A stretch of DNA of 64,000 bases, taken from positions 372,001-436,000 of the forward strand of contig AP026158.1 of the NCBI GenBank assembly GCA_030295235.1, read 5' to 3'. A program made the position numbers and the translations under genes. The notes under the pieces are model-generated. The model made no database searches and was not told the origin of the DNA. It saw only the letters and a program-made list of their open reading frames with translations. Each line of letters opens with the position of its first letter. Positions within the stretch are counted from its first letter, which is position 1. Of the stretch, positions 1-5,041 are shown in pieces. The DNA is from Fistulifera solaris. Its lineage: Eukaryota.

Positions 1-94
1 ATACTAGATTAGGGAAACATCCGCCAAGATTTCAGACATTAGTGATTAACAAATGACTTCTGTATTCTACACCTTCGGACAGCATTCCAAGCCA

Positions 95-1527
95 TTAAAC
101 TTTACTTGTGAGTGCGACGTGGCGGACTTCGCCGGCATCGTCCACATAAACAACCGAGATCATTTGATCGCCAATGTAAGCAATGTTGGTCGAACTAACT
201 CGACCGTTGTTGTTAGCGTCGCTTGGTTGACTCTTCAACCAATTCATCCCGTACTGTATAGCATAATCCCTTCCACTGTCACTGCTCATTTCTTCCCGTT
301 CTTCCTGTGATGATGACGAAGACTCCGGAAGGGAACAAGTCACCGACGCATTCACCCCCGTAAATGGTTTCGCGGCATCGTAATTCACTTTGTAGCCGAT
401 ATCTTCCAAGGTCGCGACAGTCAATCGCGACAAGAGAGGAACCGCATTGCGGACAAAGCCTGTCATGAGTTCATTCGTTAGGGACAGTTCATCAAAATGA
501 GAGCACGACGTGCCCGGACCACCATCATTTTCAATGGGAATGCTCGTGCCCACACAACCACTCATGAGTTGCCATTCAGTGCTGGCCGCCGAATCTAGTT
601 TGTAATTACATGGTCGTTGCGTCGAATCCGTTAGTCCTTTGATTTTCCAAATGGCGCCGTTGATGCCGTACTGCAACGTAGTTTAAGTAACAAAGAAGTA
701 AAGAGAAAAGATGCATAGAATGTAAGAGAGGCATCTGTAGCTTATATGGTGCGCAACGTGTTTTTACTCTTGCAACGTACCACGTGTCCAATTTCGTGAA
801 GCTGATAAAAACGAGGAGAAAAAAAAAAGAGAGGACGATTTCAACCCGTAAGAACAAATCGATTATTCCTGCAATTCCAAAAAAATGCCTTACAACTTAC
901 AATGACTTCATCAAAAATACCTTGTTGCACCATAAAGTCAACATCGGCTTCATCAAATACCATTCCACCCATGAGAGGAATGCTCGAGTCCCTCCGGATA
1001 AACTCGGCGCCCGCCTGGCCCAGCACCCTACCCGGCCCATCGATCGCTTGCACATTGACACAAATGAGAATATCATCAATCACCTGGGGAATCGATCGTG
1101 CTGTACAAAAGCGAGACTGTTGTTTCGCCGTCGAAGGGAGTTGAATACTGGGTAAATCACCCGTAATGATCTGATTCCATTCCGTCGCAGCATTCCGAAA
1201 GACCGCCTGCAATTGGGAATTCCGAACATTGCGCAAAATCAACGTGGTGTCAAAGCCCGGATAGGATTGATTCCATTCCTCACAAGTACCGCATTCCCAA
1301 TCCGAAGTCCAGCGAGATCCGATGGGTCGACATTGTTCGACACACGAGTCATCATCTGGATTGATGCGTCTCATGCGATTGCGAAACATCCCACATCCTT
1401 GACAGCTGTTCAAAAGCAATTCACGTTGTTCTTCATCGGAACGCAATCCTTTGCCTTGAACACTAGCGTGAAAAGTTATGAAAAATATCCAGAAGACCGA
1501 GACATTGGATAAATGATTCGTCTTCAT
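95..1527 (-). CDS. Secreted leishmanolysin-like (peptidase M8/GP63-like) zinc metalloprotease, paralog 1; 3 exons (1527-901, 801-781, 670-95)
   Basis: Signal peptide and IDGPGRVLGQAG motif. Splicing GT-AG introns gives ...EVI|LHEIGHV|YGINGAIW, which restores HExxH. Downstream CSHFDE (third Zn ligand), ELMTG (Met-turn) and LEDIGY motifs. Confidence 0.88.
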
Positions 1528-2233
1528 GATGGCTTTTAGACGAGATCAAAAAAAAGGACACCCAACTACGATAGATCCAAAAAGACTTTGAGGGGAGTCT
1601 CTTGAAAATGCCGCACAAAATGTTATCGATCGAAGGGAAATCAACAATGATTATCAGAAGGAATGACTCCAATGATCCATATGATGAACGAAAATGATTT
1701 CACTTTCTTTTTGGTGTTGCCGAGGAAGAACCGCATCTTTCTCGTTTCTCCGAAGAAGGGGGCTATTGTACAAACTGTTGTAAAGCTTCTGACAGGCACA
1801 GGCTAATTATTTCGCATGACCAAATTCTTTCTTAAATAATAGTAAGTCGATCTTGCCAAATGTCAGATTCATTGTAATTATGCGTAGTTATGTAGCTTGC
1901 CGGTGTTGGGACAGTGGACGACTTTGTCATCGGTTCAACAAAAACAGCACCGGGCGGTGCGAGACGACGAATTTCGGCTTGGGCGCAATAGAACAAAGAA
2001 AAACGTTATTCGTGCACCACATTTTTTTTTTTGCTTTTTGGCAGGTGCACAATGGGTCGTCTCGTCATCAGGGTGTTCCCTACGATTTCAATTCCGCTGC
2101 AGAAGAAAACATTTTTGAAATATCCACGAGCGGAATACTGACACGGCCTGGTAAACAATCCATGCTTGATTCATTCCTCAAGAAAGTCTTCTTTGGTGCT
2201 CGTCAGAGCGAATTCTCCCTCAATTTAAAGCGA

Positions 2234-3654
2234 TTAAATAATCATATCCGCAGTGACTTCTACGTGCCGTAACGTTCCGATATCGTCCAAATATATGATA
2301 GAAACATACTGGTCGCCAACATATTCGATTCCTTCCTCACTTTCCATTAATCGGGCTGTCTCATACTCTTCCATGGTTTGATTCTGCAAAACTCTTTTCC
2401 GTATTGCACTGCAAACTGATAGCCCGTATCTTCGACAAGACGTCGCCGCCGACGAACTCGTCGTGTCGGTACCTCACATTCGCTTGTACAGGCGAAATTC
2501 GTGTAATTATCCGCGTTCGTGTAATTGACTGTAAATCCCAAATCTTCCATGGCACCCACGGTGATTACCGACAAGGGCAGTTCCACAGCGGATACAAATC
2601 CCGTCATGAGCTCTGTCCGCATACATTGCTCATCAAAATGTGAACACGCGGTGCCCGATCCACCCTCATTTTCAATCGGCACCGCGTAATCAGGTCCACA
2701 TCCCGTCACATTTTGCCACGCCCGACTGGCGGCCGAATCCAGTTTATAGCTACAGGATGGTTCTCGATTGTTGATGAGACCAACCTTATCCCAAATAACT
2801 CGGTTTAAACCGAACTGCATGTGAAAGAAGATGACGACGATAGTAAGAGATAAATGTCTTGTAGCACCCACGCTCCATCAATTCTGCAATGTTCGTTTGA
2901 AAAAAAGACGTACCACATGTCCCATTTCGTGCAGCTAAGCGTGTTAAAGAGATAATGCACATGAGTATCACGCTTCATGAAAATGATAGGGCAACACAAA
3001 CGACACCCGAAACACACACTCTTTATTGACAACACGCACCACAATCCCCTTTAATTGACCGGTCCCTAAGAGCCAGTCCAAATCGACTTCATCAAGCAGC
3101 ATACTCCCAAAGACAACTAATCCATTGTGACGCCGTCGATAGCCGGTACTCGCTCTCGCCAACACCACCCGTCTTCCATCAATCTCTCCTACTCGCACAC
3201 ACACCAAAACATCGTCCACGACACGCGGCAAGGTCCCTATCCGACAATCCGACGTAAAAGGACCTTTTCGTATCAGTGGAATCCGCTGACTTGGTAAATC
3301 ACCTGTCACGACCGATTCCCATCGCGATGCCGCCTCTTCAAAGACCGTTTGTATTGTTTCATTTTGGACATTCCGAAACATGAATGTTACATCAAAGTGG
3401 GGATAATCCCATTCGACGCACGTCCCACATTCCCAACCTCGCAATCCTGGCAATAAAAAGTTGAATCGACATTCTTCTCGACATTTGTCACTGTGAGCCC
3501 GAATTTTTCGCATCCGACTCCGCCCTTTGCCGCAATCGAGTCGAGGACAGTGCGAGGATGAGCGCCTTTCTGTCGAGAATTGTGATGTCGCCGCCCGATC
3601 CGTTCGAACAAGAAGAATTGTTGTTATTAACGCAAGCGCATGAAAGAGCTTCAT
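2234..3654 (-). CDS. Secreted leishmanolysin-like M8 metalloprotease, paralog 2; exons 3654-3040, 2934-2914, 2814-2234; one apparent 1-nt deletion near 2390
   Basis: Same architecture as paralog 1: ...GIV|LHEMGHV|FGLNRVIW, CSHFDE, ELMTG, MEDLGF. After the T-run near 2390 the shifted frame reads ...IEYVGDQYVSIIYLDDIGTLRHVEVT, matching paralog 1 IAYIGDQMISVVYVDDAGEVRHVALT. Confidence 0.85.
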
Positions 3655-4076
3655 ATTAATTAATGATGCATTCTAATATAAAATGAATGGAAATAAATAA
3701 TAATAACACGGAGTGTTTACGCTGCTTTTTGGTTTTTGCTTTTTCGGTATTATATTATTTTTCGTCTGCATGCAATCTTTTCGAGAGCAAGAATGTCTGC
3801 TTGTTTTCAGTATGCGCGAATGAATTGCACTAAAGGATTTTTGAACTGATGAGTACTTTGTAGGAACATGAACACTACTCGGAGTATAAATAATAATTAC
3901 AGGTCATTTCCTGGCAGTCGTGCATGTGACAGTCGAGTCACGAGAAGCTGGGACGTTTACAAAGAATTCACCAACTTCTCGTTTCTTTACGCAGACACAA
4001 AGTTTGTTCAATCGAAAAGCCTTGTTTCATTTACCATTGTCCTCATTCACTGATTGCTTGACTTGATATGTGTCAG

Positions 4077-5041
4077 TCAAGACAACAAGAATTGAGCCGT
4101 CACACGCGCCACTTGTTCGTGTTGTTCCGTCAAAGAGATGGTGCGTGTTCCATCCGGCCTCGGATACGTTTGGTGCGGATAATCACCAAAGCCGCCATGA
4201 TTTCCTCCTTTTATTTCGTATCGTTGTATTTCGGGAGTGGACGGAGGTGGATCACTGAAACGAAAGCCATCTTGAGAGGCCGTGACCACCAATTCGGTGA
4301 CAGTCGGGGAGATTGGAGTAGCGCGTGGATAATTCACGCCCCATAACACCAATTGGGAGATTTCGGGCATTTTTGGCAACAATTCTTGTGCGGTGAGCCC
4401 ACCGAGGGAATGTCCCCCCAAAGCCCAGTTACGCACCGAGCAATTCGCTTGAGCGAGTTCGTTCGTGGCATGCTTCATGACGTCGCGTAGGGCGTGCTCA
4501 TTCAGACCAAAAAAGGGTGACATTAATCGTCGGTATCGATCCGTCTGTAACAAAATCACCGCAAGGTTATTGCCCTCTTGACGCAGTTTGTGACAAACAC
4601 CAGCATACGCTCGAGCATCCACCAAAGCGCCCGGAAGAAACACCAAGGCTACGACTGAATCCTTGTTCTTTGACGGCAAGAACAGATCATAAAGCGAATC
4701 GACGATTCGAATCGAAGACTCATGTTGGGCATACACGTCCAGTGCCGTTGGGTTCGCATCAAGACGATGTTCATACCATCCGCGAGCGAACGGCTGACTT
4801 TGTTGCCATCGGGGTCTCAAAACCAACCAAAACAATCCACAAGCCACACTCGCAACGGCGATGGGATACGACGGCGATAGCAATAACAGGAGTAGCGATG
4901 TAGTTTTGAAAGTACCCGAAAACCTTCGTTGCGTGGGAAAGAGACGAGGGAATTCTTGATGAAACTGAAAGGCCAGGGCGTCTTTTGACAAGTCCACAGC
5001 GAAACAGGTTGACTCGACGTCAATGGACTATGTTGCAACAT
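4077..5041 (-). CDS. Alpha/beta-fold hydrolase with N-terminal hydrophobic segment (start uncertain; the ATG at 5041 needs a frameshift near 4905)
   Basis: FLPGALV oxyanion loop, GGHSLGG nucleophile elbow, ASQDG (Asp) and GGNHGGFGDY (His) in the 306-aa ORF. Confidence 0.8.

Follow-up and report, generated by a model that had tools for sequence, protein, structure and literature searches.

A 21-nucleotide micro-exon carries the HExxH motif of two tandem leishmanolysin-like genes in the diatom Fistulifera solaris

The analysed stretch of Fistulifera solaris DNA (the window; 64,000 nucleotides of contig AP026158.1) carries on its minus strand two tandem leishmanolysin-like (M8) genes, FisN_29Lh023 (gene A) and FisN_29Lh022 (gene B), whose products are predicted to be secreted. 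Exon 1 of gene A (901..1527; 627 nt, 209 codons) ends in ...FDEVI and encodes a signal-peptide-like start, a Cys-rich N-terminal part and then the first half of the M8 catalytic domain. It is followed by intron 1 (802..900; 99 nt, GTAAGT...TATCAG, phase 0), by a micro-exon (781..801; 21 nt) that encodes LHEIGHV, residues 210-216 with H211, E212 and H215, and by intron 2 (671..780; 110 nt, GTACGT...TTGCAG, phase 0). Exon 3 (95..670) begins with YGINGAIW and ends with a stop codon at 97-95; according to the alignment to 1LML, it encodes the third zinc-ligand His (H274), the ELM Met-turn and a conserved C-terminal module, and by itself it yields a match to Pfam family PF01457. A 3' UTR (20..94) extends as far as a poly(A) site close to 20. 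When spliced and translated, gene A is identical, letter for letter, to the public protein P0001.

Gene B has the same layout. Exon 1 (3040..3654; 615 nt, 205 codons) ends in ...QLKGIV, and its translation is the start of the public protein P0289. Intron 1 (2935..3039; 105 nt, GTGCGT...CTTAG, phase 0), a micro-exon (2914..2934; 21 nt) that encodes LHEMGHV, intron 2 (2815..2913; 99 nt, GTACGT...ATGCAG, phase 0) and exon 3 (2234..2814; stop codon at 2236-2234) follow. All four intron/exon boundaries around the two micro-exons are thus in phase 0. With a length of 21 nt and flanking introns of 99, 110, 105 and 99 nt, both cassettes are micro-exons in the accepted sense (internal, at most 51 nt, bordered by GT-AG introns).

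An earlier note on this DNA had claimed that the long open reading frames (ORFs) of the two proteases lack HExxH, and indeed none of the four contains it. Six HExxH strings occur in the six frames of the window, and at genes A and B they are found solely in the two cassettes. When all 376 AG-N21-GT cassettes on both strands were inspected, an in-frame HExxH was present in two, those of genes A and B. Aligning the two genes across the 230-nt gap that separates exons 1 and 3 left a single conserved island, consisting of AG, the 21 nt (18/21 identical) and GTACGT. The intron interiors showed no alignment beyond the AG and GTACGT, i.e., none of the conserved flanks that regulatory elements would predict. 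Coordinates and alignment therefore bear out the description of isolated 21-nt cassettes at equivalent positions between diverged introns. In protein alignments with bacterial and eukaryotic homologs, the seven cassette residues bridge exons 1 and 3 with no indel. The paralogs share merely 35-42% identity and have both micro-exon boundaries in common, which, together with the non-aligning introns, suggests that the positions are old and that conserved intronic elements are absent.

Transcript evidence came from four runs (X1-X4), all of one study and at most four samples, in the form of assembled contigs, not raw reads, and with an RNA label that is a guess. The contigs of X2, X3 and X4 behave as cDNA; those of X1 run through introns, gene A intron 1 included, like DNA. 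One X2 contig ends in a loose stretch of 25 T before position 20, at the 3' end of gene A, indicating that the contigs are cDNA-derived. The joints by which the earlier note proposed to check the exon were recovered for both genes in three of the four runs, the same X2, X3 and X4 each time: 901/801 and 781/670 in gene A, 3040/2934 and 2914/2814 in gene B. In the X2-X4 contigs gene B intron 1 is absent, the reconstruction matches across all 485 letters, and the micro-exon corresponds to 16 "between" letters plus one and four flanking letters. Both cassettes are true exons and are included in mRNA-derived contigs. The skipping joints 901/670 and 3040/2814 were found in none of the four runs, in contigs that drop rare forms and give no inclusion levels. 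Inclusion is probably constitutive, near 100%. The locus tags 29Lh022, 29Lh023, 29Hh022 and 29Hh023 have no occurrence in one supplementary file of PMC5935921.

The same contigs bear on the reading frame of gene B. In the window, one base is missing from exon 3, in a run of T near 2387, and the reading frame shifts there. X1, X2 and X3 contigs all have one extra base behind 2387, and P0289 reads uninterrupted across the site (...YGKEFLQNQ...), so that the frameshift reflects a homopolymer in which the window sequence differs. The inserted base and the public protein rule out a frameshifted gene or pseudogene, and likewise a 26-nt GT...AG mini-intron at 2412-2387.

Public gene models contain the micro-exon as well. 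It had been expected that gene predictors would miss so short an exon, an expectation that fails, as the models for 29Lh023, 29Lh022 and the homeologs 29Hh023 and 29Hh022 all include it and all four carry HExxH; P0289, P0133 and P0286 have LHE[IM]GHV at a position equivalent to that in P0001. UniRef names all four leishmanolysin-like peptidase. The genes are broken only by intron-blind ORF calls on other assemblies (P0014, P0285, P0294 and others). This carries a practical warning for metagenome and assembly databases, in which intron-blind ORF callers applied to eukaryotic contigs produce fragments that lack HExxH; the proteins examined here included 45 such read-through ORFs, which risk being taken for pseudo-proteases.

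Genes A and B belong to family M8 by profile, motifs and fold. The four F. solaris proteins score 42.5 (P0001), 45.9 (P0289), 42.0 (P0133) and 47.3 bits (P0286) against PF01457, with a cut-off of 21. H211, E212 and H215, all three on the micro-exon, are invariant in 60 aligned sequences, in support of the proposal that the cassette bears two zinc-ligand His residues and the catalytic Glu, and the HExxH of gene A aligns to HEMAH in 1LML. In the latter structure, a distant downstream His serves as the third zinc ligand and is followed by the Met-turn. Among the 60 aligned homologs, H274 is invariant and M285 at least 90% conserved, and the SH and ELM motifs match the same letters of 1LML. The structural model has pLDDT values above 89 across most of residues 91-330, and places the micro-exon as the last seven residues of a 12-residue active-site helix (predicted 205-216, pLDDT 93-96). 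The best Foldseek match was 1LML (E 1.2e-11, TM 0.47/0.42, 284 columns), followed by MMPs at E 5e-4 or weaker; a sequence-only search of solved structures reached 1LML at just E 0.051.

To investigate the age of the arrangement, we turned to relatives of the two genes. In 45 read-through ORFs, homology stops exactly at the end of exon 1 and is followed by V[SRCG], as expected from a GT... donor. Seventeen of their tails are long enough to be informative (at least 27 aa); seven contain a full cassette of AG, xHExxHx and GT in one of three frames, and three more a partial cassette at the ORF end, giving 10/17, where the cassettes are inferred by back-translating protein tails and not from reading DNA. 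In controls, the pattern matched three times in other sequence totalling 81,119 residues, and 200 shuffles of the 45 tails gave 18 matches, i.e., 0.09 expected per shuffled set. To judge from these back-translated tails, the micro-exon is also present in more distant relatives. In a quick tree, the 45 read-through ORFs, the four F. solaris models and four ORFs with intron 2 only fell within one 54-row group (SH-aLRT 89, below the value of 95 that the tool marks with a star; 140 columns), separate from forms whose introns lie elsewhere. Intron 1 is missing in the four ORFs with intron 2 only, and there are other relatives with neither intron. Exon 1 joined straight to exon 3 was seen in 0/54 rows of the group, built from 50% clusters that could hide such forms.

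A metagenome scan with the exon-1 alignment returned 56 loci, of which 54 are bacterial-like and uninterrupted through HExxH. Of the other two, L037 is broken by a single intron within the motif and L052 contains stops ahead of it. Across the family, at least five break points lie within ~45 nt of the motif: before LHE, one residue after HExxH, after HExxHxL (P0242), after HExxHxLG (15-24 ORFs) and within the motif itself (L037, P0227, P0187 and P0234). Two members have degenerate motifs, LREVGY in P0176 and LHKKGH in P0180. Both introns were probably gained after an ancestor of bacterial type that had none, and the arrangement probably goes back to the root of a eukaryotic clade, having survived for no other reason than that neither intron was lost. 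As a rare genomic character, the two intron positions together mark one eukaryotic M8 clade and keep a record of subsequent losses of intron 1.

The two cassettes are best explained as ordinary spliceosomal exons: a micro-exon of old origin, constitutively spliced, that exists because two intron positions lie 21 nt apart. The mature mRNA is predicted to encode a normal, secreted zinc metalloprotease; we put the probability of this reading as a whole at roughly 0.87. The M8 lineage of these genes has two phase-0 intron positions, the first directly ahead of the Leu in front of HExxH and the second one codon past the second His, with the cassette as what lies between them. Each ~100-nt intron would be removed on its own by intron definition, as inferred for organisms with short introns, and with the introns spliced separately the tiny exon would need no special machinery.

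Alternatively, the cassette could be regulated, with some condition joining exon 1 to exon 3 in one or both paralogs. The product would be an in-frame, zinc-less, catalytically dead protein, a decoy or a binding-only form that would be secreted and could bind substrate without cutting it, and the layout would have been kept clade-wide for that purpose. As the earlier note had pointed out, the exon is symmetric and a multiple of 3 (21 nt, phase 0 on either side), so skipping would preserve the frame. The protein would be seven residues shorter, and the skipped form would escape nonsense-mediated decay. Exon skipping does occur in diatoms, PMC5859163 reporting it for 1099 genes of Phaeodactylum under nitrogen-free growth, and the degenerate motifs of P0176 and P0180 suggest that inactive forms of the protein may be tolerated. 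Against this stand the unconserved intron flanks of the paralogs, the different length of intron 1 in the gene A homeolog (84 nt versus 99 nt in gene A) and the relatives that lack intron 1 or both introns, which indicate that the cassette layout is not required; nor does any of the 54 tree rows, within the resolution of their clusters, show the direct join. In addition, if seven residues of the core helix were lost, a misfolded domain would be a likelier outcome than a neat dead enzyme. We therefore regard conditional skipping as improbable. If it were true, protease activity would be governed at the level of splicing instead of transcription; skipping, if ever shown, would make for a simple on/off device of natural origin, to which nothing seen points.

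It is also conceivable that the arrangement arose independently in gene A, gene B and the relatives, with introns being gained repeatedly in a hotspot that surrounds the HExxH codons. The crowding of at least five different break points around the motif speaks for such a hotspot. However, both positions match to the base and in phase in A, B, the homeologs and the inferred relatives, all carriers lie in one tree group, and a single origin after which intron 1 was lost a few times (at least two to three) is more economical, which makes separate origins highly unlikely. The idea that the cassettes are not exons at all, the genes being HExxH-less pseudo-proteases or decaying pseudogenes and the motifs intronic relics or chance, draws on the HExxH-less long ORFs and on the frameshift in the window copy of gene B, and is refuted by transcript contigs that hold both cassettes at exact GT-AG borders, by the occurrence of HExxH in just those two of the 376 cassettes, at homologous places, and by the absence of the frameshift from the X1, X2 and X3 contigs and the public protein.

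The micro-exon can be compared with several known systems. Leishmanolysin/GP63 (MEROPS M8, PF01457, 1LML) is alike in its HExxH on the active-site helix, its distant third His and its ELM Met-turn. It differs in length (478+ aa versus about 405 aa in the F. solaris proteins), and the latter possess a Cys-rich N-terminal part of their own, along with a C-terminal module that is conserved and lies outside Pfam coverage. Bacterial leishmanolysin-related zinc metalloendopeptidases are 40-45% identical over the catalytic half; their genes are uninterrupted, as in the 54/56 metagenome loci, unlike genes A and B. Animal neuronal micro-exons are 3-27 nt long, alternatively spliced, encode surface loops and are flanked by strongly conserved intron sequence. 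They resemble the F. solaris exon in size class, in frame-preserving length and in that in-frame skipping is possible, whereas the F. solaris exon has been seen only included, encodes part of the core catalytic helix and lacks conserved flanks. Among diatoms, the secretome of Nitzschia putrida, likewise a raphid pennate, includes leishmanolysin-type endopeptidases, according to PMC9054022, and offers the same enzyme family, predicted secreted.

In plants, conserved coding micro-exons lie inside conserved domains and are often misannotated, as outlined in PMC8831610. The plant exons that this source outlines are alike in being very short internal coding exons between GT-AG introns, conserved over long periods and encoding an essential part of a domain; they differ in being at most 15 nt and from land plants, whereas the exon described here is 21 nt, from a diatom and annotated correctly. 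In the literature searched, we found no description of a whole catalytic motif on one micro-exon for diatoms or for HExxH enzymes. The importance of the present case is modest: it is a clean, transcript-backed example of an entire catalytic motif on a single tiny exon in a short-intron alga.

Fistulifera solaris is an allopolyploid diatom with two subgenomes, according to an excerpt of PMC5935921, and the window carries two tandem M8 (leishmanolysin-like) protease genes of the same build, both on the minus strand: gene A (FisN_29Lh023) and gene B (FisN_29Lh022). In gene A, exon 1 (1527-901) and exon 3 (670-95) enclose intron 1 (900-802), a 21-nt micro-exon encoding LHEIGHV (801-781) and intron 2 (780-671). 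The same series in gene B consists of exon 1 (3654-3040), intron 1 (3039-2935), a 21-nt micro-exon encoding LHEMGHV (2934-2914), intron 2 (2913-2815) and exon 3 (2814-2234). All of these introns are GT..AG, 99-110 nt long and in phase 0. The spliced translation of gene A is identical, letter for letter, to the public FisN_29Lh023 protein (P0001, 407 aa), and a TBLASTN search of the window with P0001 returned genes A and B as the only copies. The next gene upstream (minus strand, 4077-5027) consists of one unbroken reading frame of 316 codons containing GGHSLGG, which we take to be the GxSxG pattern of serine hydrolases.

An earlier note had claimed that HExxH is absent from the long ORFs of both genes and lies instead on an isolated 21-nt cassette in each, and our counts confirmed this. 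The six-frame count of the window gave six HExxH strings, none of them in frame in the long ORFs of genes A and B, and among the 376 AG-N21-GT cassettes on both strands an in-frame HExxH occurs in two, which are the two micro-exons. The gene A and gene B proteins are 35-42% identical; when the 230 nt that separate exons 1 and 3 are compared between the paralogs, the single aligned island comprises AG, the 21 nt (18/21 identical) and GTACGT. Aligned with homologs from eukaryotes and bacteria, the seven encoded residues close the gap between exons 1 and 3 exactly; H211, E212 and H215 do not vary among 60 aligned sequences.

Transcript data were taken as contigs of four sequencing runs of one study (X1-X4), none recorded as RNA, and placed on window positions 1-3700. 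The X1 contigs pass through introns and the intergenic region, a DNA-like behavior. For gene A, X2, X3 and X4 each contain one contig with the structure 670 / 781-801 / 901, whose junctions have CT..AC ends on the plus strand and hence GT..AG ends in the orientation of the gene; in X2 this contig terminates before position 20 with 25 T, the trace of a poly(A) tail. Gene B is represented in each of these three runs by a contig joining 2815 to 3036 with 16 letters between; when the predicted splice was rebuilt, 485 letters matched the contig, the sole difference being one letter whose genomic placement had been imposed by the aligner. The junctions 901/801, 781/670, 3040/2934 and 2914/2814 are thus found in X2, X3 and X4 contigs, the proposed cassettes are true exons, and therefore both micro-exons are present in mature mRNA. 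An X3 contig has 17 differing letters in 901-1146 of gene A exon 1 (14 at 1003-1108 among those listed), and an X1 contig has 806-893, within gene A intron 1, replaced. These divergent contigs probably derive from the homeologous 29H copy; on this evidence the two homeologs seem to be both present and expressed, with intron interiors that have diverged.

One base is missing from the window at 2387, in a run of T on the gene strand in gene B exon 3, which shifts the frame and leads to a premature stop. X1, X2 and X3 contigs have an additional base behind 2387, and P0289, the public gene B protein, reads through the site as ...YGKEFLQNQ..., so that we attribute the shift to a homopolymer difference of the window sequence and reject gene B as a pseudogene. 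The run contigs differ from the window by one base in three other homopolymers, at 819 (gene A intron 1), 2022 (an intergenic A run) and 2217 (gene B 3' region).

The expectation that gene predictors would miss the exon proved wrong for the reference annotation, because LHE[IM]GHV stands between exons 1 and 3 in all four public F. solaris proteins (29Lh023, P0001; 29Hh023, P0133; 29Lh022, P0289; 29Hh022, P0286), each named leishmanolysin-like peptidase in UniRef. Intron-blind ORF calls do break these genes. P0014, the homeolog of gene A, runs from exon 1 through an in-frame intron to LHEIGHV, VRCNE and a stop, and P0285 and P0294 stop a few residues into intron 1. The 29H-type intron 1 in P0014 is 84 nt long, in frame and stop-free; its retention would add 28 residues just before HExxH, and retention of the window copy would truncate the protein. 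In practice, ORF-only gene calling reduces this family to motif-less fragments.

All four proteins match PF01457 (Peptidase_M8) at 42-47 bits against a cut-off of 21; exon 3 alone matches, and exon 1 alone gave no match above the cut-off. Sequence similarity to 1LML, leishmanolysin, is weak (E 0.051), the alignment pairing HEIGH with HEMAH, SH with SH and ELM with ELM. An AlphaFold model built from 60 sequences has a pLDDT >89 over most of residues 91-330, and its top Foldseek match is 1LML (E 1.2e-11), followed by matrix metalloproteases (E 5e-4 or weaker). The micro-exon (residues 210-216) forms the last seven of the twelve residues of a predicted helix (205-216), with pLDDT values of 93 and 96 in the helix blocks covering it. 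Its deletion would remove two zinc ligands, the catalytic base and two turns of a core helix, and, judging from the model, misfolding would be a more likely outcome than a tidy inactive enzyme. Both genes also encode a C-terminal module of ~45 residues, Y[IV]GDQ..S..Y.DD.G....V (95-260 and 2234-2400), which is common to the diatom-type P0002, P0015, P0161 and P0216 and absent from bacterial proteins; it gave no Pfam match and is predicted to contain three strands.

We searched 1.84 billion representative proteins with an exon-1 profile (A2), which gave 3191 matches at E <=0.001; the best 150 of these together with earlier matches formed a set of 294 proteins, of which 289 matched A2 and 283 reached the profile end. 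Among the matches listed, HExxH and the remainder of the domain are read through in 190/283, homology is lost after HExxH in 38 and an in-frame HExxH is lacking in 55. In at least 45 ORFs homology ends exactly at the exon-1 end and is followed by V[SRCG], a reading of the GT... donor. We asked whether any back-translation of such protein tails, in any frame, could hold AG, [LIVMFATC]HExxHx and GT. Of 17 informative tails (>=27 aa), seven hold the full cassette (P0014, P0029, P0136 and P0284 from one cluster, P0168, P0194, P0275), and in three it is cut by the ORF end (P0137, P0228, P0245); intron 1 would accordingly measure 57-94 nt. In the controls, other sequence amounting to 81,119 residues yielded three matches, and 200 shuffles of the 45 tails gave 18, or 0.09 per set.

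Other relatives break elsewhere. P0141, P0158, P0190 and P0202 show intron 2 alone, breaking right after HExxH+1 with V[RS] and lacking intron 1; in 15-24 ORFs among the matches listed the break follows HExxHxLG; P0242 continues in frame through an insert of 60 nt behind HExxHxL; and the motif itself is interrupted in L037, P0227, P0187 and P0234. L037 (1640-1750), a distant M8 relative on a eukaryote-like metagenome contig (GC 0.49), is split within the motif by a single ~100-nt intron (HEMG / GTAAGT...ACAG / H), at a position different from the F. solaris introns. At least five break points thus fall within ~45 nt of the HExxH codons (before LHE, within the motif, and after HExxH+1, HExxHxL and HExxHxLG); intron positions in this eukaryotic family are unusually dense where the gene is best conserved. 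P0176 (LREVGY) and P0180 (LHKKGH) have degenerate motifs in place of HExxH and could represent either naturally inactive paralogs or errors in the sequence. A-like and B-like genes share a contig in three further assemblies (P0284/P0285, 40781 nt; P0136/P0290/P0293, 16434 nt; P0014/P0294, 35430 nt), and conservation of the tandem pair therefore extends beyond the two F. solaris subgenomes.

From the exon-1 region we computed a quick maximum-likelihood tree (102 rows, 140 columns), keeping 17 of 167 uninterrupted rows, three eukaryote-like and 14 outgroup. One group of 54 rows (SH-aLRT 89, below the tool's starred level) unites all 45 intron-1 ORFs, the four F. solaris models, four intron-2-only ORFs and one other row, with the forms broken after LG outside. 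Cassette-positive rows occur in three of its four subgroups and the fourth has an intron-2-only row; on these sequences, the simplest reading is that the gene at the base of the group already had both introns, and with them the micro-exon, and that a few losses of intron 1 followed. In bacterial relatives the gene is uninterrupted, HExxH being read straight through in 54/56 metagenome loci, which points to a gain of the introns on the eukaryotic side.

The best-supported account is the plain one, in which each short intron is removed on its own, the 21-nt exon is included in the mRNA and the product is a signal-peptide-bearing M8 zinc protease. The earlier proposal that skipping of the micro-exon acts as a regulated on/off switch draws on the symmetry of the cassette and on exon skipping reported in Phaeodactylum (PMC5859163, in the portion available), but the intron flanks are not conserved between the paralogs, the homeolog intron 1 differs in length and relatives function with one intron or neither; we consider such a switch very improbable. 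A direct exon 1-exon 3 joint was seen in 0/4 runs, a count that says nothing firm on skipping since contigs lose rare variants, and nothing we observed calls for regulation of the micro-exon.

The significance of the finding is modest. The micro-exon itself is already contained in the public gene models; neither a whole HExxH motif on a micro-exon nor conservation of this layout across a eukaryotic M8 clade was described in the literature searched. Conserved coding micro-exons have been described in plants (PMC8831610), and the F. solaris micro-exon belongs to the same class. The product of genes A and B, a signal-peptide-bearing M8 protease, resembles the M8 zinc proteases reported, in extracts of PMC9054022, to be enriched in a diatom secretome.
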